Below, one piece after another: positions 1-52,916 of a stretch of DNA of 64,000 nt. Source of the stretch: Massalongia carnosa. Taxonomy: Eukaryota. The DNA lies in contig OZ287085.1 in NCBI GenBank assembly GCA_965645245.1, positions 806,001-870,000 of the forward strand, in the 5' to 3' direction. Every line of letters starts with the position of its first letter. The stretch's first letter is position 1. The translations under genes and the position numbers were made by a program. The notes under the pieces were generated by a model. That model saw only the letters and a list, made by a program, of their open reading frames with translations, was not told the DNA's origin and did no database searches.

Positions 1-1520
1 AAAAGTGATAAATTTGAAAAATCAAATCATTTCATTAAACCTTGGAAATCGTCTTGCAAAATCGAATTTCAAATCGAAAATACAAAAGAATCTGCAAAAT
101 CGAGTTATTATTCGACCTTATCCAAAATCCAATCAATGAATTCCGATAAATCCCGAGTTTTACTTTGTACGGATGTATCAAAAATCGAATTCGCAACGTC
201 TGCAGTTACATTTGCCCCAAATATGCGGAATTGGAGTATTATTATCAATAATTTTGATCGATTTATCGAAAAAGATTGTCTGATAAAGTATCATACGATT
301 TCGAAAAGCTGGAAATTAAGCACACAGTCAAGCATTAAAAACGCTGAAATGCATGCGATTTTACAAGCAATGAAATGTGTCTATAAACTCTCCAATACCA
401 ATAATCCATCGAATTCAGAAAATACGATTTGGATTTTTTCTGATAGTATAAACGCGATAAACGAAATTCAGAACCTGAAAATTTATATTTTCGCAAAACA
501 AATTCGAAAGATCGCAAAACACTTATTTGAAAGCAATTATCAAGTTATTTTGCAATGGATTCCGAGTTATCCAAAAGTTACCCAAAACGAAATTGCAAAA
601 AAAACAGCAAAGACGGGCCATAATCGAATCCTAGGCGAGTTCTCTGCCGTAACATTTGATTATGTGAAAGATCAAATAAATCAAAATATGCTAACCGCAT
701 GAACTAATCAATGGCAACATTGCAAATCAAAAGGCAAATACTACGAGAAACTCGAAATGAAACCTGGCAAATCGAATTTTTATTATTTATCAAACAACTG
801 TTCAAAATTGATATTTGCTACTATTATGCAAGTAAAATTCGGACATGGCTATTTTCGATCATATTTACATCGATTAAAAGATTATAATTCGTTAAAATGC
901 ACAAATCGATACAATCAACGATAAACGCAAGAGTGCACAGCGAGCAGTCGGGCTTCCGATGGGTAGATCATAGAAAGAATCTACTTGCTGACGTAGTTTT
1001 CATTTGGAGGGCCGCAATTAGTAACAGGATACCCAGGTAGAAGAGCCGAACTTATGACTACGTGTTGATATCGCGATAGAAGCATCTATGTCTATCACGC
1101 TACGTAACGCTCTTCGCATCTCAAGTCGTCAAGTTCGAGGTTGTCCACTTACCAGAACACTTGTTATTGTATTGAATTCACTTTTTCGATGAAATTCAAA
1201 ACATGAAACAAACTGTCGATACTACGATCAACTTGATAAGGTTTTTTAACACAAAAATCGGAAATGATATTTTGATCAAATTCATTATCAATAACAAAAT
1301 CGCTACTAGAAAATTGATACTAGGACAGCTTGATGACGAAATTGTCGAAAATAGAGGTTGGGGAGAGATCGAACAGTAAAATCAGAAATGATTTATGCTG
1401 AAACATTTCCGAACTTACGAAGACAAATTGTAAAATCAATAACTTTTCGATTACTATAGGTTGTTACTAACACGGAAAAAAAACAGGGAAAAATTAACGA
1501 TACATAGATGGGTTATAAAG
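1..1520 (+). mobile_element. Tad1-clade LINE, 3' part of ORF2 (RNase H + C-terminal zinc-finger region), degenerate
   Basis: ORF 136-702 has RNase H-like motifs (AEMHAI, IFSDS, LQWIPS). The frame continues past stops as GHGYFRSYL...*T/PEHLLL...IATRKLILG to about 1378, interrupted by a 224-bp insert at 928-1151. Confidence 0.8.
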
Positions 1521-1523
1521 GGT

Positions 1524-1827
1524 TTATTTATTTGTATTATAAAAACATATCCTAAAATAGTTTAGTGTCATAACCTTAGGTAGAATACACTTAATAAATA
1601 AATTAATAAAAAAACAACGTGTGGTTGATTTATTTGTATTATAAAAACATATCCTAAAATAGTTTAGTGTCATAACCTTAGGTTGAATACACTTAATAAA
1701 TAAATTAATAAAAAAACAACGTGTGGTTGATTTATTTGTATTATAAAAACATATCCTAAAATAGTTTATTGTCATAACCTTAGGCTGAATACACTTAATA
1801 AATAAATTAATAAAAAAACGTGTGATT
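1524..1827 (+). repeat. Three tandem copies of a ~101-bp unit (LINE 3' end plus flank)
   Basis: The unit TTTATTTGTATTATAAAAACATATCC...CCTTAGG.TGAATACACTTAATAAATAAATTAATAAAAAA(C)AACGTGTG occurs three times. Confidence 0.9.
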
Positions 1828-2577
1828 GATGACTATGTCTTTTCTGACTCTGTGTTTCCTCGATTCTATTTAACAGGCCGGGCATATTAAAATAGGATAT
1901 TGTTATTCTACTCCGAGATGGAGTTTTCTTGAGGTGACAGCATTCGCCCCGGGGTCTTCACGCGTTCTGATGATCCCAGCGGATGATTGCATAGCGAGAC
2001 TTGAACTCTCAGGAGCTAGAACGCGTGTCGACTGTGCCCGGGAAGGGGATGATGGGGCTCCGTAGGTCCACATCTTCTTCCAGCTGATGACTGCATGAAG
2101 GGACTTGAACACCTGGAAGCATGGTGCAGGGACGCGTGCATTCTACCCTCCGGCGGTTGGCCTTCGTATCCTCTTCCGTACGTACGTCTGCGACGCGTGT
2201 GAACGCGTTAAATTAGCATTGTTTTGATGCGAAGAGATAGGAGAAATTCTATGTATTTGACGGTCGCCCCACGGTAAGGCCTTTGGCGTCTCCGTGGTGA
2301 GGACCGATGGTGTAGAAAGAGGACGACCGATGGTGTAGAAGAGAAGGACCGATGGTGTAGAATGAGGAGGACCGATGGTGTAGAAAGAGGAGGACCGACA
2401 GTGTAGAAAGAAGAGGACCGACGGTGTAGATAGAGGAGGACCGAAGGTGAAGAAAGAGGAGGACCGACGATGTAGAAAGAGGAGGACCAACGGTGTAGAA
2501 AGAGGAGGACCGACGGTGTAGATAGAGGAGGACCGATGGTGTAGAGAGAGGTGGACCGATAGTAGAGAGGGAGGAGG
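1818..2577. repeat. Unclassified dispersed repeat, homologous to 14622-15155, ending in a 21-bp minisatellite
   Basis: 1818-2330 aligns by eye with 14622-15155. GAGGACCGA(T/C)GGTGTAGAAAG-type units run from about 2297 to 2570. Confidence 0.8.
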
Positions 2578-3655
2578 AGTATCCGCTTCATCGAGGGTTC
2601 GCCGCTCCCGCGGATTGATTCCTGTATCTCGAAAATCTGCGATACCTGTTTTTCAAACTGTAGAGAGACTGCCCGGCTGCTGTTCAAGCAGTTGCGTGGC
2701 AATGGAATACTGTGTTATAATACCTGTGCGCATGAGCCAGGCGGTTACTACTTTGAGAGCTTTGGGTTCGGTGATTAGCTTGCGGTAGTCTGACGAGCCT
2801 GCCCTTCGTAGGATGTGCGTTCTGTATTCGTGCAGTCTGCAGAACATGATTACATGTTTGGCTGTTTGTAAGAGGCTTCCGAAGGGACATGCCGCCGAGT
2901 TAACACCTGGGACCTTGCGCAGATATAGAAAGTTGGCCAATCCGATTTTTTCCGTTCTTATCTGTTTTGCTAGTGAGCTTTGCGCTTTGTCTAGTAACTT
3001 GTGTGCGTTAAGCCTTTTACTGTGTATAGGCGCCTGTTGTGCGATCGTGGGATATAACGTGTGTTTTGCTTGATATGCTTTCCACTTGTTGATCCACTGA
3101 TTCTCAAAGTGCTTCTTTATTATCCCGTCTCGTTGGTTCTGCGTCGTTACTTGCGCTGTGCGTTGTCTCTTCTGTACCTCGTCGATCGTTGTCCAGGGAG
3201 GGGGAGAGGGTTGATCCAGTTTAACTGTTTTCGGTGCGTCTTTCGTCATCTTTGTTACCCATTTTCGTTTACGAGTTCCCGGTGTTTTCTCTGCGACTCG
3301 CGATTGACCTCTTTTGCCTCTGAGTTTCACTTGAATTCTATTGCACGCCTGCTTTATAATTTTTTCCTGTTCGCTGTTCGAGATTCTGGATCTCGTTTTT
3401 GCTTGTAAGCGGTCTAGATGTTGCGTTAAGGGAGGGATGTAGGTTTCTGCCTGTAATACTTCAATTGGGGTAGCCTTGTACGCTCCGGCTATGACTCGTA
3501 AACACTTGTTTTGTATGAATCCGAGTTTGCTTCTTGATTCGACTTTGGCTTTCTTTCTTGCTTCGGCTGGCTTGTGCAATGCTATCGAGCCGTGCGACAT
3601 GGCGGGGCGTATTACTGCTGTGTACACGTGGCGGGCTCGTAGGAGGGTCGCCCCC
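2578..3655 (-). mobile_element. Tad1-clade LINE 3' fragment (ORF2 C-terminus)
   Basis: ORF 2653-3627 reads YTAVIRPAM, QNKCLRVIAGAYKATP, QIRTEKIGL, CPFG..QTAKHVIMFC. 2578-3175 is nearly identical to 18067-18664. Confidence 0.9.
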
Positions 3656-5537
3656 TAATTGTTAGTTTTCACTTGATTAAATAATTTATTTCTTCCGTCT
3701 ATCAGCTGACAGTGCATGATGACGTGTTTAGCCGTCTGCCTTGGCCATCCACATATGCACGCCGGTGAGTTTACATTGGGTACCCTTTGGTAGAAATGAA
3801 AGTTGGCTAGCCCGATTTTCTCCGTGCGAATTTGCGTTGCTAGTGAACTCTCCGCTTTTGCCAAATTGCTGTAAATTTTTAATCTCTTTTTGTCAAGCGA
3901 AGCTTGTTGAGCCTCGGTGGGGAGTGGAATGCGATTTTGATAAGTCGCCCATGTTGACTTCCATATTTTCATATGATGCTCCATGAGCCGCGTATGATGT
4001 GCCCGTTGGGCCGTTCGCGCTTCTCTCAGCTCCTTGAGATATTCTGGACTGGCCTCGTACCACGGGGGCGCGGAAGGCGGTAACCTGACGGCGGCCTCTC
4101 TATTTAAAATTGCCTTTGCCCATGTGTGTTTCAGTTCTCCGGGTGTTGGCGGCGGAGTTTTTATTCGACACGCTCTTTCCCGTAGCTTATTAGCTATTAT
4201 CTTGCATGCGGAGTTAGCGAGTGCTTTTTGCCCCGTGATTCGTAGTCGATATCTGGCTTTAGCCTGTAGTTGATCCAAATACACATCTATTGGGGCTATG
4301 TGTGTTTCTGCCTCCAGCACCGGTATCGGGGTAGCCTTGAACGCTCCGGCGACTGTGCGTAGGCATCTGTTCTGAATGACCGCCAAATTGGACGTTATAG
4401 ATTTATTTCTATTTACGTCTTTCGGGGTGTGCCAGACGATTGAACCATATGTCATGGCCGGCCGCACCACCGCCGTGTATACTTGCCTGGCCCTAGCGAA
4501 CGAAGCTTCCCAGGTAGACGTGGAAATTTTTTCTAAGGCCATGCTCTGCTTGACCATCTTCTCCTGCGTTTTCTGTATGTGAGAACCCCACTTAAGTTTG
4601 GTATCTATTTGAAGACCGAGTATTCTTATATCCGCTTTTGGTTTGATTAGGCTGTTTTCTATATTAATAGTAGCCGTCATATCAAATTTCTTTGGATTTC
4701 TAGATAAATGAATAAGCTCGTACTTAGTCGGAGCAAATAAGGATCCGTGTCGTAGAGCCAATCTTTCACATTCTCTGTTAATTCTTTCTAGCGTTCTGCA
4801 ATTTTCTTGCGTGCTTTTCCCATATGCTAGTACATTGATGTCATCGACGAATCCGAGTCCGCTCGTTTTCGTGCCGGGCCTGTTACATATATCTAGTAAA
4901 TCCGCATTGTAGAACAAATACAGAATGGGAGAGATGGGTGAACCTTGCGGAATTCCGGTTCTCGCATCAAACTCGTCGGTGGTTCGTCGGTTGATCGTAA
5001 GAGTGGTCCTTTTGTTTTTCAAAAAGCATTCTATCCAGTTGGTGACCCACTGTGGAATTTTTCTTCTTCGAAGATTGTGGATCACTCTTTGATGCGAAAC
5101 CGTGTCGTACGCGCCGGCCACGTCTATGCTGAGCAGCGTGGCGACTTTATCATTACCTTGACCCCACACTGTGTGAATCTGTTCGGTTAACAGCTCTAGT
5201 GCTGCCTCGGTAGACCTTTCCCGTCTGGCTCCCATCTGGGTGCCTGGTAGTAACTCGTGCTTTTCGGCCATGTGAGTGATCTTGCTTGCCATGATGGCTT
5301 CCATCACCTTGCCTAGCGTATTCAGCAGTGCTATCGGGCGATAGGCCTTCGGCGTTTCGTAATTGTCTTTGCCCGCCTTTTTCAGCGTTATCGTGTGCGC
5401 TGTTCTGAATGCTCGCGGGTGATATCCCAGATTTACGCACGCCTGAAATAGAGGAGTTAACAACTCGGTCAGCGGCTCAGAGCACGCTTTGAGAACTCTA
5501 TTGGGTATGCCATCCGGTCCAGGAGTCGTGTCGGGCT
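3655..5537 (-). mobile_element. Tad1-clade LINE ORF2 reverse transcriptase, truncated at both ends
   Basis: ORF 3655-5463 has PKAYRPIALLNTLGK, DVAGAYD, GIPQGSPISP, FVDD and a C-terminal CICG..QTAKH..C knuckle. Confidence 0.93.
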
Positions 5538-6063: not shown

Positions 6064-6548
6064 TGTAATAGGGTAGGCCTAGTATGCGTTCGTTGAACGT
6101 AAGACTGGCCTATGTGGCTATATGGGATACGTACAGCCAAAACAACCACCAAGACAATAAGGTCCCGCCTAACCCAGTTATGCATAGTGTGGGGACTTAA
6201 CTTATTATGGAGGTGTTTTCGTAGTACACGAAGTATCCCCTCGCCTCGCCTCACCTCCCCTAGCTCACCTGCCTAGTCTTATCTACCCGTGTCTTTCGGT
6301 GTCCGAAGTATTTCGGAGTCCGAAAATACCAGGTAGTATGGGCAAGGTATGGAAGAAGAGCTTAGGTTATGGATTGTCCTATCCTATATAGATCAATGAT
6401 CAAGCACTTCAAAAGGGTAGCATTTAGTCTACCCTTTGACCCGACCCTATCTATTTTGTACCTCTATTGTGACCATCACGTTGTGTAGCCCCTGTGGATC
6501 CCATCTTCCAGTAGTGAATGCCTGCTGGGAGAAGGTCTCCCCGTTTCA
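6064..6548 (+). repeat. 5' LTR of the Gypsy element (485 bp)
   Basis: TGTAATA...GTTTCA; differs from the 3' LTR by 6 substitutions and 1 indel (manual count); TATA-like box near 6385. Confidence 0.97.
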
Positions 6549-6907
6549 ATTCTAAATGCTCTATATATCTCCGGATTAGCACGATCCGGTGGTCGCAATA
6601 AGGGTGCTGCTTTTTACCGCTTTCGCCATCCAGCACCATTTGGCCTTTCGTCGTTCAGGCCAAACTTCCTCATCGATTCTTCCATGGCCACCCGCAGCCA
6701 GTCCGCTGCAATTAGGGCCTCAATGGATCCTTCTCTCCTCGGCACCTCCGGTGCTTCAGCTAAATTCAGCCAATGCATCTGGTGCTCCGCCGTCTAGTGG
6801 CCCCCTTCCTGTCGGCCCGCACGGCTCCTCCCGTCCTTCCTCTGGCACGTCAGCTACCACAGTGACTCTGACTGCCGAGCAATGGGCTGCTATCCAGTCT
6901 ACCCTGG

Positions 6908-8234
6908 CACGCGGGTGACAAAATAAATTGCAACGTGTAAGCGAATTTACCCCCCCTTTTTTATTCAAATTTTCATCTCATCATCAACCATCATCTGCAT
7001 AGCTGATAAAATTCATCTAAATTACATGAGATCAATAACCAGTCATCGCCCCCTTTGCATCTTTCACCTCTTTCAATCTTTTGGGCATGGATAACACCCT
7101 TTCATTGATAAATTCCTGACTGACTCGAGCCCATCCCTCCCTAATCAGCTGCTCCAAACTTGCATCGTCCCAATGAGGAAATTTACGAACATGCTGCTTT
7201 GCGGGCTGCGAGCAATTTTCAATAGGAGCTAGATCAGGAGATGAAGAACAATTGAAATAGTGCTCTAAATCGTGATCTAACTTCCACTTTTTGACCGCGT
7301 TTCGTCTCTTGCCCGTGCCATGACCAGAGTCTCCATCTTCTTCAAGTACGAAGTCATCTCCACGCTCCAACCAGGGCTTGACGACGGGATCAAGAATAGC
7401 GTCAATATACACCTGATGAGTCATGTTTCCATTGCTATTGCTGGGCACATCGTAGAAGTAGATATCCGACTTGAAATTGTAACCAACTGCTGCCCAGCAG
7501 TGCTTTCTTTTACGATCTTTCTCAGGTGGTGCATCACGATGCTGAATACAATCCCAACGATATCTTGTTCCGGGCTTACGAATGATTCGTAACTGTCCTT
7601 CAGGCCCGTAGCCAAAATGAATCTCATCGCTGAATCGTACGCGATGCCAGTCTTCTGACCGAGGATATTTATTTAACATAACTGTAGCAAATTCTTCTCT
7701 TCTTTCTTCTGATGCCATTGCCAGCCACCCTTTGACACAGGCTAGACATTTGTGATAATTCAAGGCAGCTGTAAGAGTTCTCTTCATTGTAAGTCCCATC
7801 ACGTCGGCCCCAATCTCCTGTGCTAAAGCATCCCATGTGTAGCGTTTTCCTTCCAATTGTAGATCTTGATCCTGCAGAATGTGATCTGCCTCCTTCAGCT
7901 GATCATCACTAATCTTTCGCTTTCGACCCCGAGTCTCAACGAGAGAAGAATTGTGACGTGTGCGAGAAGAAGCTCCGCTTTTGATGATGTTATAGCCCGC
8001 GCGCTCGGCCACGCCAAATTCCTGAAAAATGGCCCGGGGATCGAATGAAATTGCATGTGAGATGAGAAATTGATAAGCTCCTTGAACTTTGGCCTTTGTG
8101 GGAGTATCATAATGAGGCCTTTTGGGTCGAGACATTGATGATGAGATAAAAAGTTGAAAAAAAGGAGGGTGTTTTGATGGGGCATTCAGGGGTAAATTCG
8201 CTTACACGTTGCAATTTATTTTGTCACCCGCGTG
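6908..8234 (-). mobile_element. Tc1/mariner-superfamily DNA transposon, intact, with 46-bp perfect TIRs
   Basis: TIR CACGCGGGTGACAAAATAAATTGCAACGTGTAAGCGAATTTACCCC at 6908-6953 and inverted at 8189-8234; CCTGG on both sides. Confidence 0.95.
7032..8135 (-). CDS. Tc1-like DDE transposase (DD38E), 367 aa
   Basis: Uninterrupted ORF with FSDE, EEDGDSGHG and SPDLAPIEN; 38 residues between the second D and E. Confidence 0.92.
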   Translation of the reverse strand: MSRPKRPHYDTPTKAKVQGAYQFLISHAISFDPRAIFQEFGVAERAGYNIIKSGASSRTRHNSSLVETRGRKRKISDDQLKEADHILQDQDLQLEGKRYTWDALAQEIGADVMGLTMKRTLTAALNYHKCLACVKGWLAMASEERREEFATVMLNKYPRSEDWHRVRFSDEIHFGYGPEGQLRIIRKPGTRYRWDCIQHRDAPPEKDRKRKHCWAAVGYNFKSDIYFYDVPSNSNGNMTHQVYIDAILDPVVKPWLERGDDFVLEEDGDSGHGTGKRRNAVKKWKLDHDLEHYFNCSSSPDLAPIENCSQPAKQHVRKFPHWDDASLEQLIREGWARVSQEFINERVLSMPKRLKEVKDAKGAMTGY

Positions 8235-9257
8235 CCTGGACCAAATCAACCAGGGCCAGGGCCGAACTCCCTCTCGGTCTGCTCGCCGATCTCGATCGGC
8301 CCCACGATCTCCTCGGGCACCCCAGTCGCCTGAGAGGTCATCCAGGCGGAATAGTCATCATACCCGCCGGGACTCTCGCTCTCGCTCGCCCGGCCATTAC
8401 CATCGCCGCCTGTCACCTTCGCGTGACTACTCAAACCGCCGTTATGACGGCGCTTCTCGTCCCTTACTGAAGCCCAAGGTTCCTGACATATACAAGGGAA
8501 GTAGTCACAAGGAGCTGCATGAGTTCGCTCGTCAGTGTCACGAGTACTTCAAGACTGCACGGGCGCATCCCGATGACTCTTCCTCAGTCTCTTTCGCGGC
8601 TTCCTTTCTTCGCGGAGAGACTGTTGGCCATGTATGGTCAGAATACGTCAAGACATTGCCGCTTGATTACGACCCACCCTGGGCCGAATTCTTAAAGGTC
8701 CTCCGGGATGACCTTGGCAACGAGAAGACCTTCGTGGACAAAACCTGGGGAAAGTTCTTTAGTTTTGTTCAGCGCCCTGGAGACAACGTACGCACGTTTA
8801 GCGTACAGCTTCAACAATTGTGCTCCGTTCTTCAGGAGTATGACCTTCATTTCCCCCGCGAGTCCGACATGATTCGCCGCGCTCGAGATGCTCTGCGTCC
8901 TGAGATTAAATCAGCCCTTTACAACATGGTTGACAATGCGAGCACCTACTCGCAATTCGTCGCTCTCGCAATGCAGGCCGAGGCATCCGTTAATATGCAC
9001 ACCTCGACCAAGAACTCCTCACATCGCGACTCTCGTCGCGATAAGTCAAGGGATGCCTCGCAAACTCGATCGTCGAAGACTCAGGGTAAGAATCACAGAC
9101 GTGGCAAGGGTAACAACAAGCCTACCGAATCTTCCGGCACCTCTGCCAACAAGACGCCTGACACTGGCGCCAACGCAGAGCCTCCTGCCGAAGTCACCTG
9201 CTATAGATGCGGTGAAAAAGGGCATATCTCTACCCACTGCACCAATCCTCCCAAGCC

Positions 9258-12200
9258 AAAAAACTAGCTGTCGCCGGCGTTACTTCCGAACCGGTGACTG
9301 ACCCTAGGGAGGCAATTGCCAAGCATGCGCCCCGTTTGCAAAGAGAACCCTCTACGATAGATGGTTCTCGGTTGACTACCCATGGCATGGTGTTAGCCAA
9401 ATTCTCTCTTGATGACAAGCTTGAACGAACTCGCTGGTTCGAGGAGACTTTTCTAATAGCAAACGTCTCTCATGATGTTGTGTTGGGGATGCCTTTTCTG
9501 AAACTCGGCAACCCGGACGTCCACTTCGCTGAAGGGTCTCTCACTTGGAGAGATTATTCTGTCTCGACTTCTTTGCCGACCGAAAGGCGCATTGAGTTAG
9601 TTGAGCCGGAGACCTTCGCAGAGGATGCTCGGGATGATAAGTCCGCTTGCTTTGTCGTACAAGTAGCCGCCATTCTTGATGCGTTGGACGACGCTAGGCG
9701 CGTGAACCTACAGGCTATTTCGACTACAGAGGAGATCAAGCTCCCTGTGGAATACGCCGATTATGAAGGGGTATTCTCTGCGGAGAAAGCTGACGAGTTG
9801 CCGTCGCTGACCCCGGATGATCACAGAATCGTCCTAGAGGAGGGCAAGTCGCCTCCTCATGGGCCTATCTATAGCCTCGGTCCCACGGAGTTAGAAGCTC
9901 TAAGGGGTTATATCGAAGTCAACCTCAATAACGGGTTCATCAGACCGTCGACTTCCTGCGGGGGCGCCTATCCTCTTTATTAGGAAGCCCAGCGGAGGAT
10001 TGCGGCTATGCGTCTACTACAGGGGTCTCAACAATATAACGATTAAAAACCGTTACCCCCTGCCGTTAGTAGGCGAGGCCCTAGATAGGCTCGGCCGAGC
10101 GAAGGAGTATACCCAGCTTGATCTCATCCATGCGTACCATAGGGTGCGAATAGCAAAGGGAGACGAGTGGAAGACTGCCTTTCGAACTCGCTATGGCCAT
10201 TCCGAATATCAGGTTATGCCCATTGGGCTTTCCAATGCACCAGCGACGTTTCAAGCTTTGATTAACAAGGTACTCGCTGAAAAACTTGATGTTTTTTGCA
10301 TTGTCTACTTAGACGATATTCTCATTTACACTGAAGAGACTGGTTCAGCGCACACTGATGCGGTTAAGTGGGTGTTTGAACAGTTACGAAAGCACGGCCT
10401 GTATGCCAATTTGCAGAAGTGCCGTTTCAGTCAGAAAGAGGTTCGCTTTCTTGGGTATATTATTTCACCTGAAGGTATTCGGATGGAGAATGATAGGATA
10501 GAGAGCGTGCGCAGCTGGCCTAGACCCCAGTGCGTTCGCGATATTCAAGTCTTTATAGGCTTTGCCAATTTTTACCGCCGGTTCATCAAAGGGTTCAGTA
10601 AGATCGCTAGGCCTTTGACCGCGATGCTGAAGACGACGGGCCCTAAGATGCCGAAATCGGACCCGTTTCTGACTGCTGAGGCGTTAGTAGCGTTCGATCA
10701 ACTGAAGGGGGCCTTTGTCACGGCCCCAGTCCTCAGGCATTTCGATGCGGAGTGACATATACGCGTGGAGACTGATGCATCTGGGTATGCCATCGGTGGG
10801 ATACTATCACAAAAGGACGATGAGAGTCATTGGCATCCAGTAGCCTACTTTTCTAGGAAGATGATTCCCGCGGAGCGTGATTATGAAACGCATGACGCGG
10901 AGTCGCTGGTCATTGTCGAGGCTTTTAGGCATTGAAGGCATTATCTCGAAGGCAGCACTCATGAAATCCTAGTTCTCACCGACCACAACAACCTAAAACG
11001 GTTCATGGATACCAAACGACTCGGCGGACGCCAGATCCGTTGGGCGCAGGAGCTCTCCCGGTATAACTTTCGGATTGACTATCGTCAGGGTTCTCACAAC
11101 CCCGCAGACGCCTTATCTCGCCCCGCCCAGGCTGAGGCGGATGACGATGAGTTAATAGTTGAGAATAAACAGATATTGCACCGCTTGAAGGATTCTTTGC
11201 TGTTGAACGAGCCCGTGACCATTCGGGCCTGCAAGGCATTAAGCCAACCTAAGAAGCCCCGCGAGCGTGACTACTCGCAGGGGTATAGGAAAATGATGTT
11301 AGAGGTGATTATCTGTGGGACTGCGGTGGTCCCGGACCTCGTCAAGTCATGGGCTGTTATAAGGGCAGTCGTGGCTGAAGAGGGTCCCTACACTGCAATC
11401 GGTTCATTACTTCCACGTCTTCCTGAGTTGCTTGCGGAAGACAAGGGCTCCCAGGCTGTACGAAAGAGGCTAGCTACCTCCGAAGTTAATGCGTTTTCTG
11501 GTGTTTCGGGCGAGCCCTGGAAGGAGTCCGGGGATGTCTTATATTATGAAGGCAAGCCTTATATCCCCGAGACGTTACGAACTGAGATAATGGCGCGCCA
11601 TCATGATGACCCCTTGGCGGGGCCTTTAGGCATTGAAAAGACCCAGGAGTTGCTGACTCGGAAATACCACTGGGACACTATCAAGGTGGACGTTGAAAAG
11701 TACGTGGATGCGTGTGACGTATGCATGAGGTCGAAGTCGCAGAGGCATAAGCCGTATGGGAGTCTCCAGTCCCTGCCGATTCCCTCGCATAAGTGGAAAG
11801 ACATTACGATGGACTTCGTTACAGGGCTCCCGCGCAGTTGCGACTGGCGTGGAGTAGGATATGACTCCATCCTCGTCATTGTTGACTGCCTGGCGAAGAT
11901 GGTCCATTACGAAGCAGTGATGAAAACGCTGACGGCTGAAGGCCTCGCGGAAGTAATTATTGATTCGGTCGTGAGATACCATGGGCTCCCTGACTCTATA
12001 GTTATAGACCGTGGCTCCCTGTTCACATCGCAGTTCTAGCCCTCGCTGTGCTATTTTGTTAGCATTAAGAGGAGTCTCAGCACGGCTTTTCACCCACAAA
12101 TTGACGGCCATACAGAGCGTCAGAATAGCACGTTGGAGGCGTACCTCCGGTCCTTTGTCTCATTCGAGCAGGACAACTGGGTGCAGTATCTGCCCATGGC

Positions 12201-12939
12201 TGAGTTCGCCTTCAATAACTCCAAGCACTCTAGCACCGGGTTGACTCATTTCGAGTTGAACTGCGGTTATCATCCGCGGATGAGCTATGAGGATGAGCTG
12301 GAGCCCCGTTCGCGGTCTAGGGCGGCGGGGGCTGAGGTCGCGGAACTCAAAGAGCTTATGGACCTGTGCAAGGCAAACCTTAGAGGTGCACAAGAGTCTC
12401 AAGCTCGCTACCATAACAAGGCTACAAAGGATCGTGTGTACAGCCCCGGCGAGTCAGTTTGGTTGGATGGCAAGCACTTTAACACGAAGAGGAATAGGAA
12501 GCTTGGACACAAGTTCCTAGGTACATTCATGGTTATTGAGCCGATTGGCAAGCAAGCCTATCGCATCCAACTGCCACCGCGTTGGCGAATCAACGATGTC
12601 TTTCATGTGTCTCTTCTGGAGAAGAATGGCACTAAGAAGGGGGGAGTCGATAAAGAATTAGCGGAGCAGATAGAGTTCAATGAAAATGAACCAAAGGAGT
12701 ACGAGGTCGAGAGTATTCAAGATTCGGCTGTCTATGCTAGGGAGTCGGAGGACGGGAGACCTGTAGGGCTTTATTATCTGATCCATTGGAAAGGATACCC
12801 TGAGTCTGAGGATAGCTGGGAACCGTATGCGGCCATCAAGCATTTACGCAAGATGGTGAGGTTATTCCATAGGATAATCCTTCAAAATCCACCGCAAGCG
12901 GAACCCCAGTCGATTCAGGTCCTCCACGTCCTCCTCTAG
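9258..12939 (+). pseudogene. pol: Gypsy pol (PR remnant, RT, RNase H, integrase, chromodomain) with stops and frameshifts
   Basis: [14 protein letters not shown]; integrase HH...CC and ITMDFVTGLP; chromodomain YEVESI...YYLIHWKGYPESEDSWEP. Confidence 0.95.
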
Positions 12940-13423
12940 CGAAGAAATCGACGTACTCCGCGCTGCAGCCGGACTCCCCGCCTGGCCCTGTCGATGAGGC
13001 TTTGCCTTTAACCTCGCAAGTGGGGGTCGACTTGGTAACACCGCTGCGTCTAGGACGTCCCACGAGGGGTCGTCGGCAGTTAGGTATAGATGACGCTGGC
13101 GCGGCTGGGACGGTCCATACGCGCAAGAAGCCGCGAGTCTGGTCCTAAGGGACAGGCGAAGAAGTCCAATGCTGCGGCATTGGCAGTGAGTATGTAAGTC
13201 GGTGCCTAATGGCCGGAAGGGGCTGCATACTCACAAGGGGACCGTCGGCGCAGTGGATCATTCGGCTAGGCCGTACCTGTCATGACAGCGATGCCTTTTT
13301 GCCTCTGTCCCAAAGGGTCAGAGGGTTTTTATGGAGTTGTCTAGGTACGCACACTAGGTCGTCATGAGGCTATCTTTTGCAGTGCATGTCTCGGATGGGA
13401 CTCGACCATAGGAGGGAGGCAGT

Positions 13424-13907
13424 TGTAATAGGGTAGGCCTAGTATGCGTTCGTTGAACGTAAGACTGGCCTATGTGGCTATGTGGGATACGTACAGCCAA
13501 AACAACCACCAAGACAATAAGGTACCGCCTAACCCAGTTAGGCATAGTGTGGGGACTTAACTTATTATGGAGGTGTTTTCGTAGTACACGAAGTATCCCC
13601 TCGCCTCGCCTCACCTCCCCTAGCTCACCTGCCTAGTCTTATCTACCCGTGTCTTTCGGTGTCCGAAGTATTTCGGAGTCCGAAAATACCAGGTAGTATG
13701 GGCAAGGTATGGAAGAAGAGCTTAGGTTATGGATTGTCCTATCCTATATAGATCAATGATCAAGCACATCAAAAGGGTAGCATTTAGTCTACCCTTTGAC
13801 CCGACCCAACCTATTTGTACCTCTATTGTGACCATCACGTTGTGTAGCCCCTGTGGATCCCATCTTCCAGTAGTGAATGCCTGCTGGGAGAAGGTCTCCC
13901 CGTTTCA
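13424..13907 (+). repeat. 3' LTR of the Gypsy element (484 bp)
   Basis: Direct repeat of 6064-6548, preceded by a PPT. Confidence 0.97.
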
Positions 13908-15835: not shown

Positions 15836-16880
15836 GACCTACTTGATAAACCGCGCTCTAGAAGTTGTAAAAAATATCAAATATCAATAAAATCATTAAA
15901 AATAGATATTTTTTCTTCTTTTCTTCTGTTCTGTTGTCGCAAGACCTTCAATTATTACTATAAGAATTTTCTTCAAATCGAAATGAAACCTGGCATTTCA
16001 AGTTTTTATTATTTATCAAACAAGTGTTCTATATTGATGATGAGGATGATGATAATTCTTATTCCGATGTGGTACCGGCCGAAGGCCGGCCCATGCGGGC
16101 AACTCTATGGAATTATATAATACATGGAAAACCTTTTAAGGAAGAAAAACCAAGTAATCCGACATCTTTCCGAAAATTTTTCGAGTCTCGGTCGAGGGAT
16201 CTATCTGAAGAACAGTTGACCGGTGAGAGGTTAAAGGAAAGGAAAGTCGCCTTTTAGCGACTCGACATGTGGTTGTCAATAATATAAATGCTGTGCTGTC
16301 ATTGAAAACTGAGTTAGTAAGCCGGTCTTCATTAACCAAGCGGTGACTAGTTTTATCGCTCAGGATAAGTCGGTAATTAGTCGATAGTTGATTGTGCCTA
16401 TAGAACTTAAAATTGACTGTCTGTTGCTGTTAAGTTTGCAAAACATGATTACTTTTCTCGCGATTTGTTTCGGCCAGCCACATGGATAGTTTGGTGTTAG
16501 GACGTCGGTGACGTGATGTCTAAATAGAAAGTCGGCTAGGACTATCTTTTCTGAGCGTATCTGGATAGTTAGAGCGCTTTCAGCTTTGGCTAGAGTTATG
16601 TGTAATTTGATGCGTTTTTTGGTTAGTGGGGCTGCCTGTGCTGGAGTAGGCGTAGATTTGCGATTCTGATATATTTTCCATGAGGTCTGCCATGCGTCTA
16701 TATATCGTTTTTTTATTTTTGCGGTTATTTTACCTTGAGCAGCCCGCGCCTCTTCAATTTCTCGAGCTGTATTCGGGGGGGGGGTTCGGCCCATGTTGGG
16801 TGCGCAACCGGCGACGCGATTTTATGTGTGTCCGATATTATTTTCTTGGCCCATACGTGTTTCAGCATTCCCGGGGTACT

Positions 16881-17449
16881 TGTAACGGTTCGACCAAGCG
16901 TTGTGCGGACGGCAAGACCTACAGCGAACATAGCAGGAGTACCAGGTATAGTAGAATAGAGATTGGTCTGCGGACTAAGGATTGTGCCTTTTGGACGGGA
17001 GCATAGGTGGCACAATTGTAGAAATCTATTCACTATCTCGCTTCGTCACAGAATACTTAGCCATCAAACGGTGTACTAGTCGTGTGTTCGATTCCTGACC
17101 TGAGTTCCTCGCTTTTTCGCCTTGCTTTAACGAACTGAAGCTAGGACGAAACGGGAAAGCGTTGTATGAAAACTCTCTAAGTCGGATCGGCGAGGGCCGT
17201 ACGCTAAGAATTGCCCATTCTTCGGTGCTAACTATAACTGGAAGCTGCTATGGGCTAGCCGCAGCTAGACGAGCGGTAGTATAACGGTTCGACCAAGCGT
17301 GCTGCGGACGGCAGGACCTACAGCGAACATAGCAGGAGTCCCAGTTATAGTAGAATAGAGCTTGGTCTGCGGACTAAGTATTGTGCCTTTTAGTCGGGAG
17401 GACAGGTGGCGCAATGGTAGAAATCTATTCACTATTTCGCTTCGTCACA
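16881..17449 (+). mobile_element. TRIM (terminal-repeat retrotransposon in miniature), 569 bp
   Basis: 170-bp direct repeats at 16881-17050 (TG...CA) and 17280-17449; 229-bp non-coding interior; TSD GTACT at 16876-16880 and 17450-17454. Confidence 0.9.
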
Positions 17450-17950
17450 GTACTCGAGGGAGCTCGTTTGCGTCCAGCCCGGCCTATGAGTTTGTTTGCA
17501 ATAGAGTTGCATGTATTGAGGATGAATTTCTTTTAACCTCCCTGACACAAGTGATGTCTAGCCTGCGTCTGAAGTTGATCTAGATATATGTCAATAGGAG
17601 CTATGTACGTTTCTGCTTCCAATACCGCTATTGGGGTCGCCTTAAATGCTCCAGCTATAGTTCGTAAACATTTATTCTGTATGACGGCTAGCTTATTTGA
17701 GATGCCGTTCGATTTTTTTTATATCCTTTGGCATGTGCCATATAGTAGAACCATGGGTTTTGGCCGGGCGAACTACGGCGGTGTATATCTGGCGCGGTTT
17801 TGGAAAGGTGGCGCCCTATGTAGAGGTAGAAATTTTTATCAGTGCCCTGGTTTGTTTTCGCAGTTTTTCCTGAATCTTTCTTATATGCGGACCCCATTTC
17901 AATTTGGTGTCGATTCGGAGTCCCAAGATTCTACTATCTGTTTTTGGTTT

Positions 17951-18659
17951 GATTTGATTTGATTATTCTTACGCCGTTGTGTCACCGGCCGAAGGCCGGC
18001 CCATGCGGGAGATGCTATATAAGATATGTAATAAATAGATAACCCAAAGGTGAGAAACTACTCCTGCGTATCCGCTTCAGCGGGGGTTCGCCGCTCCCGC
18101 GGATTGATTCCTGTATCTCGAAAATCTGCGATACCTGTTTTTCAAACTGAAGAGAGACTACCCGGCTGCTGTTCAAGCAGTTGCGTGGCAATGGAATACT
18201 GTGTTAAAGTACCTGTGCGCATGAGCCACGCGGTTACTACTTTGAGAGCTTTGGGTTCGGTGATTAGCTTGTGGTAGTCTGACGAGCCTGCCGTTCGTAA
18301 GATGTGCGTTCTGTATTCGTGCAGTCTGCAGAACATGATTACATGTTTGGCTGTTTGTAAGAGGCTTCCGAAGGGACATGCCGCCGAGTTAACACCTGGG
18401 ACCTTGCGCCGATATAGAAAGTTGGCCAATCCGATTTTTTCCGTTCTTATCTGTTTTGCTAGTGAGCTTTGCGCTTTGTCTAGTAACTTGTGTGCGTTAA
18501 GCCTTTTACTGTGTATAGGCGCCTGTTGTGCGATCGTGGGATATAACGTGTGTTTTGCTTGATATGCTTTCCACTTGTTGATCCACTGATTCTCAAAGTG
18601 CTTCTTTGTTATACCGTCTCGTTGGTTCTGCGTCGTTACTTGCGCTGTGCGTTGTCTCT
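17951..18659 (-). mobile_element. 5'-truncated LINE copy with an (ATCAA)n tail and a 14-bp TSD
   Basis: Nearly identical to 2578-3175; TCTGTTTTTGGTTT at 17937-17950 and 18660-18673; the host LINE frame resumes after it. Confidence 0.88.
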
Positions 18660-19979
18660 TCTGTTTTTGGTTTAATGATGCTGTTTTTCTATCTTAACAA
18701 CAGCAGTCATGTTAAATTTCTTCGGATTTCTTGACAAGTATATCAATTCGTACTTTTTCGGTGCCAAAACCGATCCGTGCCGAATGGCCTATCTTTCGCA
18801 TTTCTTGTGAATTTCCTCTAGCGTATTGCATTTTTCTTCGGTGTTCTTCCCATATGCTAACACGTTTATGTAATCTACGAAACCTATAGCGCTCGTGTTG
18901 GTTCCAGGTCTTTTACATATGTCTAGTAGGTCTGCATTATAGAAAAGATAGAGGATAGGGGAAAAAGGAGATCCTTGTGGTATTCTGGTTCTTACTTCGA
19001 ATATGTCTATAATTCGGCTATGTATTGCTAGCGTGGTACTTCGTTCGTTTTAAAAACTGTCTACCCAGTCAGTAAAGTAATATATTTTGGGATTTTCCGT
19101 TTGCGCAGGTTATGGATTAAACGTCTATGTGACACTATATCATAAGCTCGTGCTACGTCTATGCTCAACAGAGTGGCTACTTTGTCGTTGTATTGTCCCC
19201 ATACTTGGTAGATTTGTTCCGTTAACAATTCCAATGCAGTTTCTGTTGCTCTTCCTCTTCTGACACCTATCTGGGTATCGTGTAAAAGTCGGTGTGTTTC
19301 CGCTATGTGGGTGATTTTCTTGGACATGATGGATTCCATAACCTTGCCAAGCGTGTTCAGGAGCGCTATAGGACGATAGGCGTTCGGAGCCGTATAATCA
19401 TCTTTATCTATCTTTCTCATTGTGATTGTCTTTGCGGTCTTGAACGCGCGTGGATGATACACCTGATCTATGCATGCTTGAAACAAAGGAGTTAGTTTAT
19501 CGGACAGCATTTCGGAGCACGCCTTTATAATTCTATTGGTTATTCCGTCCGGACCAGTGGCCGTTTCAGGCTTGAGTCGGCGTATCGATTCTGTTACTTC
19601 CGATCTGGTTACGATTATAGGACAGTGAGGAGGACTAGGATAAAAGGAGCCCTTTATGTCGCTGAGATCGGCAGGAGGTACAGGTGGAAAGAATTTCTGT
19701 TTCAGCATCTCAGTTTTTTCCTCGAACGTGGAAGCTATTTGATCGTCTCGGGTAAGGCTAGACATTTTTGGAATTTCTCTTGGCTTCTCACTTTTATCCT
19801 TCGCCCACTTAGCCAGCCGCCATAATCCCGTAGGCGATTCAGTAGCTTTTTCTATTTCCTTGCGGAACGATAGTCACTTGGCTTTTTGAATTATTTTTTG
19901 TTTTCTATGATTAGACTTCGTGTACGTTATCCAATCTTAAAGATCTCTTCGGGTCTGAATAGCCTCCAACTTTCGAATT

Positions 19980-39803: not shown

Positions 39804-40528
39804 CACGCGGCTGATAAAATAACCGGGAATCGGCGAAAAGTTTACCCTAAAAATTCTCCCCTCTATTTACCATTCAACCTCTCAATATTATAGCTTCACA
39901 GCGACCTACCACCCCTAACTTGTAGCTCCGGGCTACTAAAGCTCATTATTCTACTCCACCCAAAGCTGCAGTTCGAAATGCAGTTCATTTCGCTGAGCGA
40001 ATGAATTTATCCCACAAAAAACAGGACGTTTTCAAATAATTCAACGTTAGTACAACGCGTAGCTATGAGATACTTCGGAATAAATCTTATTGTTCTTCTT
40101 CTCGTAAATTTTATCATAGTTCTGATGAAGAATAAACTCGAGGAAGAAAACAGCTTATTTCTTCCGTCAAAATTCGGGAGATGGAACGAATTCTAGAAGA
40201 AGAAGGAATTGAAGCTCGCTCCCTGACTTGGCAACAATTGGGCTACGATGTGGGATTAGATTGTAGTGGTCGTACGGTGTAAATAGCTATGGGGACAATG
40301 GATTATCATAAATGCGTATCTTGCAATAGCTTGATTTATGAGGGGTAAGAGCACGTGTCTCAATCATTTATAGATGAAAAAGTAGCTAGCATGCCAGAAA
40401 GGCTAAAAGCGGTCATTGACGGTGAGGGTATAATGACTGGTTATGAATTGTAAGTAGCAATGCAGAAAGGGATAGTTTTTGGTGGGGTAAATTTTGGGCC
40501 GATTCCCGGTTATTTTGTCTGCCGCGTG
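39804..40528 (+). mobile_element. Internally deleted relative of the Tc1-like element at 6908
   Basis: TIR CACGCGG.TGA.AAAATAACCGGGAATCGGC; peptides HYSTPPKAAV, RGRK, LTWQQLG, YHKC and SMPERLKAV..G.MTGY match both ends of ORF 7032-8135. Confidence 0.85.
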
Positions 40529-49658: not shown

Positions 49659-51581
49659 AGAACCACACCAGGCCCCCATCCAACCCGGCAAGCACCCGCT
49701 GGACTTAATTCACAGCGATGTCCAAGGACCTTTCCTAGAAGCCTTGAATGGTGACCTTTCTTTGCGATTTCGATAAATGGTCCTACGTCACCTTACTGCG
49801 CGTCAAAAGCGGAGTCCTTCAAGCTTTTAAAAACTACAAGAAGCAAAATGAATATGGGGACAAACGAATTAAGCGCTTGCGATCGGACTGTGGGGATGAG
49901 TATGACTCCAAGGACTTCGAGAATTTCAGAAACGAGCATGGCATTCAGTGGGAACCTACCGTACCGGGAAATCCACCCATGAACGGGACAGCCGAGCGCC
50001 TAGGTCAAACGCTTCACAAGTTAGCCAGCACCATGCGAGAAGGCGCTAAACTCGACATCAAATATTGGGCTGAAATGGTTCTCACTGCCAACTACCTAAG
50101 AAATCGACAACCAACTGCGGGACGCTCCATCACCCCCTACGAGTCTCACACCGGCAGCCCACCAGAACTAGGACATCTAAGGATAATAGGACAGATTGGC
50201 TATGCGCAAAATCGCAAGCCCTCCACCGGATGGAAGAAATTTCAGGAACGAGCCACCAAATGTACTTTAGTAGGATACGAAGGCGATCACATCTATCGAA
50301 TGATAAATCCACGGGGCGCGGTCATGCGTTATTCCAATGTTCAGTGGATAGATAACAATCCCCCAACTCCTCCTTCCTTATCATTCTCTCAAACCAAAAG
50401 AGCCCTACACGTTGGACAGTCAGGACCGCCCACAAGAAAGCAAAAAATTACCCATCATACGGACTCCCCTCATACGGACTTAGTCGACGCTCATGAATCC
50501 ATAGAATCAATTTCCACTGGACCTCTCCCATCAAACGCTGGACAAGAGGCATTGGCAAACCAACTGCCCATTGAGCCTCGGTCCCAGGCAGATATTCTCT
50601 CTAAGCACCCAAAACTTCGTGCCCCTCGCCTGACCCGCTAGCTCTTTTGGCTCTTCTTGCTCGAGCCAATGACCCAGAGCCATACGAGCCTAAAACCTAT
50701 AAACAGGCCGTAGATAGTCGGGAGGAAAAGGATTGGCGAAGGGCAATGCAGGAAGAAATTGACTCTATCAACGAAAATGATACCTGGATCCTCACCTCCC
50801 TGCCCCCGGATCGCAAAGCCCTGCGAGGAAAATGGGTTTATAAAATCAAACGAGGCCCGGCTGGCGAGATTCTTCGTTACAAGGCTCGATGGGTAGTCAG
50901 AGGCTTTGAGCAACGTGAAGGCATTGACTACAATGAGACTTTTGCTTCAGTAGTGAAGCCAATGAGCTATAAAGCCATCTTCGCTATCGTTGCAGCCAAT
51001 GACTGGGAAATTCACCAAATGGACTTAAAAACAGCCTTCATGTACGGAAGGGTGGACGAGGAAATCTACGTGGAGCAACCAACCGGTCTGGATGACGGGT
51101 CAACGAGAGTTTGCAATTTGAAGAAAGCTCTTTATGGCCTGAAACAGTCGTCTAGAATCTGGTATGAAACGATCACTACTTTTTTCAAGTCGCATGACTT
51201 CGTTCTAGTCAACGCCGACCTTAGCGTTTTCGTTAAAGAAGGGATTATCGTAGCCATTTACGTCGATGATTTAATCATCACTGGCCCTTCTTCTTCCGAG
51301 ATACAACGTGTCAAGAAACTGCTGAGCGACGAGTTCTCGATGGTTGATTTAGGCCCTATCAATTATTACCTGGGCATGACGATAACTCGGGATCGGGCTA
51401 ATAGGATTCTTCGCCTTGGTCAGCAGGCCTATATGGAAAAAGTACTACGCGACCATGGCATGTGGGACACTAACCACGTAGCTATCCCGATGGATGGGCA
51501 ACTGGAGGCTGCACCAGAGGGCAATCAGGCCACAGATGACTCCCGCCTCCGCTGCCAATCAGCAGTGGGCTCTCTCATGTA

Positions 51582-52914
51582 CAGTACTAGGCCAAAAGTC
51601 TGCGGCCCCGCACCCCACCAACATTTCAATCATTCTATTCAATCAACAATCAACCACGTCACGATTGCTGAAATGTCTTGAAACTTTACATAATGATTAC
51701 ATACATACTAAACACGAATTCCCCCAAAAATTGATTTTTAATATTTAGTATACCATCCTTCCGACGCTATACACGCTTTTATCCTCCTATTCATGCTCTC
51801 TATTAACCTCCTCATTATTTTCACATCTATCAACGTCCAGGCTTCTTCTAACGCTTTCCAAAGTACCTCACGAACAGTTTCATCACTGCCTATCACCAAA
51901 TCTATGTTCGGGTTGACTTGATAGACGAGCTTTTTGAGCACATACCAAACGTGCTCGATGGGATTTAAATCAGGTGAATAGGTGGGCCAATCGATGACCT
52001 CTATGCCGTTCTCATTGAACCATTCCATCACCTTTTTAGCCTTATATATAGGTGCGATATCCTGCATGAAAATGAGGCCCGGTTGCCAAATTCCAAGCAG
52101 ATTATCGTTCAATAATTCCAGATATGAGTTCGCCGAGTACCCAATCTTCTTCGCAGCAAAATCACGAGCCAATTTGTAAAGATCTGACCTGTCATCTCCC
52201 CAAAATGCTGCCCAAACAATGACACTGACTCCTTTGCCTCTGGGGAGAGGTTGTATCATCTCTTTATTCCATTTTCTTTCGGCAATCTGAACACCCACTG
52301 ACGCTGTTTTCCTGACCCCTTTTCCACCGAGCACTCATCTGACCATATAACTCTTGACCACTGCTCAAAAGTCCACTCACGCCGCAGCAAGCACCAATCC
52401 AATGGTTTCTTGGCCACCTCAGACGTCAATAAAGGTCCTTTTTTAGCCACCCAGTTGGTTAAACCATACAGTTTGAGTGCCCGATAAATGGTCGTACGAC
52501 TACAGGCGAGCCCCACTTCTAGTTTGATTTGTGCATAAGTGATTCGTGGATTGATTCGTGCATGCTTGATGATATAACGTCGATCGCGTTCTGACAGCAC
52601 TTCAGGCCGTCCAGAACGTGATTTAGACACGCCGTCGTTGCGAATTGAGTGCTTCTGAATGGTGCTCTGCACGGTCGATTTAGTGAAATTAAGAGTCTTC
52701 CCAATCTCGGTCGGTGTGCCCCAACGCCTGGGCTCCAACAATCATACCACGTTGATATGGCGTCAATTCAGTTACGAGGCCGATTACCACTTATGGGGGT
52801 CAAAGAAGCACGAAGCATGGTGAAATGATGAGGTGGAAGATGGGGGGTTGATGAGTTGAAAACGCGAAATCACGTAGATCACGGGTTGGGCCGCAGACTT
52901 TTGGCACGGGACTG
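51582..52914 (-). mobile_element. Tc1/impala-like DD34E transposon, frameshifted
   Basis: TA|CAGT...GCCAAAAGTCTGCGGCCC TIRs; WSDE, MQD and SPDLNPIE with DD34E spacing. Confidence 0.92.
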
Positions 52915-52916
52915 TA

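Follow-up and report, generated by a model that had tools for sequence, protein, structure and literature searches.

The 64,000-nucleotide (nt) window analyzed here, comprising positions 806,001 to 870,000 of the forward strand of contig OZ287085.1 from Massalongia carnosa (GenBank assembly GCA_965645245.1), carries a Tc1-like DNA transposon, designated E1, within the gag region of a Ty3/gypsy retrotransposon (Table 1). The terminal inverted repeats (TIRs) of E1 open with CACGCGGGTGAC and enclose a minus-strand open reading frame (ORF) that runs uninterrupted from ATG to stop and encodes a 367-amino-acid transposase. A repeat finder returned arms at positions 6903-6953 and 8189-8239 that extend over 51 nt and are 98% complementary, their sole mismatch being the central T/A of CCTGG/CCAGG; from CACG inward, 46 nt pair perfectly. 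CCTGG abuts both ends of the element, and TA is present at neither. On these points our analysis agrees with an earlier note on this DNA, which had described perfect 46-base-pair (bp) TIRs, an intact ORF, and CCTGG without TA on both sides. A 28-nt pattern derived from the E1 terminus occurs twice in the window and in none of 100 shuffles, and a search of the whole window with the TIR pattern, allowing up to three mismatches, recovered the two E1 ends and no further copy. Likewise, tblastn and blastn searches of the window for E1 copies revealed a decayed relative (E2) and an unrelated Tc1-like element (E3), with no second intact copy.

Table 1. Positions within the 64,000-nt window of E1, its host retrotransposon, and two further Tc1-like elements. 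TSD, target-site duplication; LTR, long terminal repeat.
Feature	Position	Strand	Remarks
E1, Tc1-like DNA transposon	6908..8234	transposase on minus strand	1327 bp, ends CACG...CGTG
E1 left TIR	6908..6953	+	46 bp, perfect
E1 right TIR	8189..8234	+	46 bp, perfect
Left subterminal imperfect inverted repeat	6959..6987	+	partner 8135-8163; 29 nt, 90%
Right subterminal imperfect inverted repeat	8135..8163	+	partner 6959-6987
Left putative TSD copy, CCTGG	6903..6907	+	same 5 bp as 8235-8239
Right putative TSD copy, CCTGG	8235..8239	+	same 5 bp as 6903-6907
E1 transposase ORF	7032..8135	-	367 amino acids; D170, D267, E306
Incidental read-out ORF	8177..8470	+	ATG 58 nt inside right end; through TIR into flank
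Host Ty3/gypsy chromodomain LTR retrotransposon	6064..13907	+	LTRs ~6064-6548 and 13424-13907; E1 in gag region
E2, internally deleted decayed E1 relative	39804..40528	+	44-nt TIRs 89%, CACGCGG termini, no TA flanks
E3, classical Tc1-like element	51582..52914	-	ends CAGT...ACTG; TA at 51580-51581 and 52915-52916; DD34E

When the terminal k nucleotides of the left flank were set against the k nucleotides that open the right flank, a direct repeat was found at k = 5 alone, with comparisons at k = 1-4 and k = 6 failing. The earlier note had proposed three models for the boundary between element and duplication, namely CACG ends with a 5-bp duplication of CCTGG, GCACG ends with a 3-bp duplication of CTG, and GGCACG ends with a duplicated T. 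The quasi-palindromic character of CCTGG makes the junctions in the window equally compatible with the second of these, a rival explanation in which the ends are GCACG...CGTGC and the duplication is a 3-bp CWG, in parallel with the 3-bp duplications of a few IS630/Tc1/mariner elements. Distinguishing among such models depends on junctions of additional copies, which are described below.

The host retrotransposon, whose LTRs are 99-100% identical, provides a reading frame across the insertion site. Upstream of E1, the gag frame is open from approximately position 6643 to 6906 and ends in ...AAIQSTL; downstream, it resumes as LDQINQGQG... and continues to the zf-CCHC knuckle, with the ORFs on that side of E1 encoding zf-CCHC, RVT_1, RNase H, integrase zinc-binding, SH3, and chromo domains. 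Excision of 1332 nt, corresponding to E1 plus one CCTGG (3 x 444), preserves the gag frame, and excision of 1327 or 1337 nt breaks it. Under a 5-bp duplication, the empty host site would be ...ACCCTGGACC... Each E1 flank pattern occurs only once in the window, and blastn with the flanks of E1, E2, and E3 found none of the three insertion sites a second time within it. As a separate observation on the host element, its pol region carries one frameshift and two stop codons despite the near-identical LTRs.

The transposase itself is readily placed. The E1 protein matches Pfam DDE_3 (E = 1.3e-7; 32 bits versus a cut-off of 28.6), and a phmmer search of PDB sequences identified the catalytic domain of Sleeping Beauty SB100X (5cr4; E = 7.7e-10). 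In the alignment with SB100X, a 4-residue insertion directly follows the second catalytic Asp of the E1 protein, converting DD34E to DD38E: D267 and E306 are separated by 38 residues, rather than by the 34 that characterize the Tc1 family sensu stricto. Both of these residues are invariant in the family alignment and D170 is nearly so. The DD38E spacing and the EEDGDSGHG motif reported in the earlier note are thus borne out for this copy. A family alignment of 40 sequences was used to build an AlphaFold model, which has a mean predicted local distance difference test score of 78.5, and the top Foldseek match of this model in the PDB is again Sleeping Beauty (5cr4; E = 1.3e-11; target-normalised TM score 0.78; 27% identity), followed by Mos1 transpososomes and SETMAR. 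The N-terminal part of the protein, where a paired-like helix-turn-helix DNA-binding domain is expected of the superfamily, has no Pfam match and is modelled as helical bundles at residues 11-52 and 77-125; precomputed annotations assign PF01498 to some homologs. Judged by protein sequence and modelled fold, E1 is a Tc1-like member of the IS630/Tc1/mariner superfamily. It possesses a Tc1/mariner DDE domain and TIRs surrounding a single transposase gene, and it lacks the 2-bp TA duplication.

As a probe for the right junctions of other copies we used the 97-amino-acid read-out ORF that begins at position 8177, for which no function is claimed. Its first 19 residues, ending in ...CHPR, are encoded by the element, and the remainder is encoded by the flank. 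The codon that follows HPR consists of the last G of the element plus flank bases 1-2, and the next codon consists of flank bases 3-5, such that the flank bases of other copies can be deduced from their amino acids, presuming that their terminal DNA is identical to that in the window. Among proteins of 53-170 amino acids (24 candidates), the search yielded four matches at E <=10, of which three represent other copies and one is the left-end ORF of the window; among proteins of 30-52 amino acids (six candidates), all six matches are junctions. A representative library of 1.84 billion sequences of any length gave 10 matches at E <=0.001, nine of them the same junction ORFs. The tenth (P0131; 3100 amino acids) was rejected as a junction, having aligned solely to the flank-derived part of the query. 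Of left-end read-out ORFs, the search recovered the window's own (P0124) alone.

The nine junction ORFs of other copies, which sit on contigs of 1.9-3.6 Mb, are identical through the first 19 residues to HPR and divergent afterwards. The residues following HPR are AAV, AHV, GSV, AWY, DWS, GWS, DSQ, GTL, and DRE, compared with AWT at the right end and ARV at the left end of the window copy. Across these 11 ends, the first codon after HPR specifies Ala in five cases, Gly in three, Asp in three, and Val in none, which corresponds to C, G, A, and T, respectively, at flank base 1. Because this base varies while the 19 preceding residues remain intact, it must belong to the flank and not to the element.

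These junctions bear directly on two of the alternatives. If E1 were an ordinary TA-duplicating element whose flanks had been altered or whose true ends lay elsewhere, as would be expected from the rule for the superfamily given in PMC7325037 and PMC7386202, then a TA flank would complete the codon GTA and place Val after HPR. Since T is never found at flank base 1, TA is present at 0 of the 11 ends; moreover, the identity of the inverted repeats continues right up to CACG, and the TA-flanked E3 in the same window looks classical. This explanation is effectively refuted, and TA flanks at other copies, which the earlier note had weighed against its own reading, were not encountered. Models with GCACG or GGCACG ends demand a constant C beside CGTG. 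That nucleotide is indeed present at 5 of the 11 ends, but three others have G and three have A, with the 19 preceding residues intact in each case, and E2 has T and G beside CGTG. In addition, the duplications implied for several copies by a 3-bp model (N-G-C, N-C-A, and others) are not CWG. The GCACG (CTG) and GGCACG (T) ends are therefore excluded by the observed variation, which renders the 3-bp CWG duplication highly unlikely, and of the three models in the earlier note only CACG with 5 bp survives. On the sequence evidence, the ends of E1 are CACG...CGTG and the duplication in the window is the 5-bp CCTGG.

The same junctions indicate what kind of target is favored. TGG occupies flank bases 3-5 at 4 of the 10 right ends, or at three of nine when the window copy is set aside, a frequency that departs from the background of 0.0134 with a binomial P of 1.9e-4 (2.2e-4 when conditioned on sense codons). 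AGG is found at these positions at the left end of the window copy and the right end of E2. Given a WGG half-site at bases 3-5 as viewed from both ends, the ideal target would be CCWGG, a palindrome centered on base 3. A 5-bp stagger counted from CACG ends would be expected to have the same center, and exactly such a site is occupied in the window. A further pattern concerns the third codon beyond the end of the element, which is Val (GTN) at 4 of the 11 ends (P0121, P0122, P0123, and the left end of the window copy). All four of these ends, with GT at flank bases 6-7, lack TGG at bases 3-5, and they may reflect either an extended preference of the form AC-NNNNN-GT or chance.

Points of comparison come from E2 and E3, the other Tc1-like elements of the window. 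E2 retains approximately 130 N-terminal and 43 C-terminal transposase residues, interrupted by stop codons, with 33% and 58% identity to E1 over the two matched stretches. An alignment of both E1 ends with both E2 ends is invariant from CACGCGG inward, with G, G, T, and C as the adjacent bases; because conservation halts at CACGCGG, this comparison supports the CACG terminus. The flanks of E2 (...GCTGGT on the left and GCAGGG... on the right) lie in no clear ORF and place TA at neither end. E2 thereby supports the absence of TA and the CACG ends, and not the length of the duplication. E3 is broken by a frameshift and stop codons and serves as an internal control for ordinary TA flanks. As an ordinary TA-duplicating element resides in the same genome, the unusual flanks of E1 are better attributed to its clade than to its host. 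E3 itself lies within a copia-like reading frame for reverse transcriptase.

Our best explanation of these observations is that E1 inserted recently and belongs to a multi-copy clade of Tc1-like cut-and-paste transposons in fungi, and that it does not use TA, has CACG ends, generates a 5-bp duplication, and prefers CCWGG-like targets. We assign this joint reading a probability of roughly 0.7. Several points weigh against it. The 5-bp length is directly visible in one copy, with no other copy having its left and right flanks paired, and it is this dependence on a single insertion that leaves the main residual risk. E2 does not supply a second instance: its flanks (CTGGT and GCAGG) form no direct repeat, and deriving GCWGG from them needs one substitution plus a 1-nt indel. 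The deduction of flank bases from amino acids leaves base 2 and some others ambiguous. At least three of the nine other copies misfit WGG at bases 3-5, having GCN, CAY, or ACN at these positions within flanks such as C-N-G-C-N, C-N-C-A-Y, and G-N-A-C-N, and two further copies, with Ser codons, have at best A-G-Y. Finally, the gag stretch upstream of E1 contains no in-frame ATG and matches no Pfam family, and for this reason the frame evidence carries moderate weight, as support for a 5-bp duplication and not as a decisive argument. The earlier note's proposal that the gag frame fixes the empty site accordingly holds insofar as removal of 1332 nt keeps the frame, and is weakened by the character of the upstream stretch. 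Its suggestion of altered CWG or CCWGG targeting can be retained in the sense that TA is not used and WGG is favored, and not in the sense of a strict target. From the junctions at hand, CCWGG is a preference and not a requirement.

It could be argued instead that the 5-bp repeat in the window is coincidental, and that the duplication made by this family has a different or variable length or does not exist. A single intact copy with both flanks, together with an E2 whose flanks are not repeated, would be in keeping with such a view. However, a chance match of 5 nt at a fixed register is expected about once in 1024 cases, CCTGG is the ideal palindrome of the preference found independently in other copies, and the gag frame is kept solely on removing E1 plus exactly 5 nt. 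We consider a coincidence clearly unlikely.

A mechanism for 5-bp duplication can be sketched as cut-and-paste transposition in which two 3'-OH ends attack the target. A transposase dimer of the E1 family would attach these ends to phosphates of the target that are offset by 5 bp, and not by the usual 2 bp, and repair of the resulting gaps would yield the 5-bp duplication. The dimer might recognize the CCWGG-like palindrome symmetrically, with each monomer favoring a WGG half-site outward from its own end. As for the structural cause of the wider stagger, the 3-7 extra residues that follow the second Asp in this clade relative to DD34E enzymes (D[GN]DSGHGxGK..N) might, as a matter of speculation, alter target capture, making this loop a candidate.

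A search of protein databases with the E1 transposase recovered 292 relatives at E <=0.001 among 1615 candidates, and the family descriptions given here rest on the best 120 of these. The closest relative listed (P0001) is 98% identical and represents a cluster of 43 member sequences, which, together with the perfect TIRs, supports the view that the E1 family is young. At 45-50% identity, the named relatives belong to Clathrospora, Bimuria, Botrytis, Pseudogymnoascus, and Orbilia, several Ascomycota in which NCBI and UniRef annotate the proteins as 'Tc1-like transposase DDE domain-containing', and all named relatives among the matches listed are fungal. D...E segments were located by a simple pattern in 79 of the 120 listed proteins, where the spacing ranges from 37 to 41, is most commonly 37, and is associated with the motif D[GN]DSGHG. 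A reading of DD38E as a lineage signature does not withstand this comparison, in which DD38E appears as one value of a variable loop and not as a family label. A scan of bacterial and archaeal contigs with the family alignment identified relatives in 7 of 215 candidate stretches, all of them IS630-like bacterial loci which, at 23-34% identity, are too distant to inform on the duplication. That the entire Ascomycota-wide clade defined by D[GN]DSGHG, DD37-41E spacing, and CACGCGG ends has abandoned TA in favor of a 5-bp stagger at CCWGG-like sites is a proposal that we advance tentatively, at slightly less than even odds.

Whether the window copy can move by itself is another matter. The E1 protein has N in place of K237 and S in place of W309 (the W of ...PIENCW...), both of which are sites conserved at >=90% in the 40-sequence alignment, and the 98% identical P0001 keeps K and W at these positions. 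With two changes at nearly invariant residues, the enzyme of E1 may be impaired despite its intact ORF, making the activity of this copy doubtful where the earlier note had suggested that it may still be active. Transposition of the window copy would probably need transposase from a sister copy, and given the perfect TIRs, sister copies could still mobilize it.

A related question is whether this family and its 5-bp target have already been catalogued, for example in Repbase or Dfam, the likeliest places for such a record, as might be anticipated for a widespread clade that is annotated in several Ascomycota. A full-text literature search that did not extend to subscription papers, Repbase, or Dfam detected no duplication of 5 bp without TA in any Tc1-like element, and full-text searching likewise found no paper linking CCWGG with the target-site duplication of a transposase. 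The clade motif has 0 occurrences in the six text-form supplementary files of PMC7325037. In the sources consulted, the duplication variants on record are TAA and TAAA, which belong to Fot and Fot-like pogo elements and all begin with TA (PMC7386202), and the fungal surveys describe TA only, for Tc1/mariner elements of Sclerotinia (PMC4188875), Paracoccidioides (PMC2836289), and Cochliobolus (PMC4112212) that are mostly of the larger pogo/Fot type. Prior cataloguing is in our estimation a minority possibility, on the unlikely side without being negligible.

Comparison with known systems helps to delimit what is unusual about E1. Like Sleeping Beauty, Tc1, and Tc3 of the Tc1 family, it is approximately 1.3 kb long, has one ORF of about 340-370 amino acids and short TIRs that start from CA, and encodes a DDE_3 catalytic domain, for which Sleeping Beauty is the best match in both sequence and fold (27% identity); unlike them, it lacks TA, has a 5-bp instead of a 2-bp duplication, begins with CACG instead of CAGT, and has a D-to-E spacing of 38 instead of 34. 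Duplications of 3 bp occur in Tc4/Tc5, the ciliate element TBE1, and Zator. Transib and RAG-like transposons resemble E1 in having 5-bp duplications and CAC-type termini. An assignment to Transib was nevertheless rejected, given that the E1 protein is a DDE_3 Tc1-type transposase of 367 amino acids with no RAG1-like domain, and the resemblance is at most convergent. The impala subfamily, with which E1 was compared by description only, shares fungal hosts and a similar size, but impala duplicates TA, which no E1-family end displays. Impala is placed as DD37E (Dupeyron et al.; PMC7325037), which is the commonest spacing of the E1 clade, or under DD34E/Tc1 (Gao et al.; PMC7731502). The E1 clade thus seems to resemble impala only in its hosts, its size, and its commonest spacing.

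Intruder (DD38E/IT) has Tc1-like architecture and the same D-to-E spacing of 38 as E1, and was set apart by description: according to PMC7731502, its authors searched all kingdoms, including fungi, with TBLASTN and found it in animals only, in contrast to the fungal relatives of E1. Membership of E1 in this group was provisionally rejected on these grounds and on the clade spacing of 37-41, and because that spacing varies, the shared DD38E is regarded as coincidental. Sagan, for which PMC3164196 reports a long D-E insertion with TA kept, was rejected as well, as E1 lacks TA and its D and E are only 38 residues apart. Among fungal members of the wider superfamily, Fot and Fot-like pogo elements also have duplications that depart from plain TA (PMC7386202). 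However, their variants start with TA and they encode DDxD proteins of 450-600 amino acids, whereas E1 has a Tc1-like DDE transposase and its family no T at the first flank position.

The window as a whole is crowded with transposable elements. A minus-strand frame of 284 amino acids at positions 43338-44192 matches the C-terminal half only of the piggyBac-type profile DDE_Tnp_1_7 (E = 5e-18) and is, from this partial match, a transposase fragment. Several ORFs for non-LTR reverse transcriptases resembling those of long interspersed nuclear elements (LINEs) lie on the minus strand at 1-5535 and 16360-19873, and the first 2 kb of the window are AT-rich (32.7% GC). At 2143-2714, also on the minus strand, two overlapping frames are rich in a peptide repeat of approximately 20 residues (...HRRSSSFYTVGPPLSTPSVLL...), a pattern that points to tandemly repeated DNA within or beside a LINE-like element.

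A TA target and its 2-bp duplication are taken as a hallmark of the IS630/Tc1/mariner group, and the solved structures of Mos1 and Sleeping Beauty come from TA-targeting elements. Should Repbase or Dfam already list the family with the same target, our finding would shrink to one well-preserved example of an anomaly already on record. If the clade-wide proposal made above is true, target capture would have been re-engineered naturally within the fold shared by Sleeping Beauty and Mos1. A close structural relative that combines a 5-bp stagger with a GC-rich palindromic preference would be a natural comparison for understanding how active sites are spaced on target DNA, and it could also broaden the range of integration sites open to transposon tools. 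For fungal genomes, annotation pipelines that demand TA at the ends of such elements would miss members of the E1 clade or misplace their boundaries.

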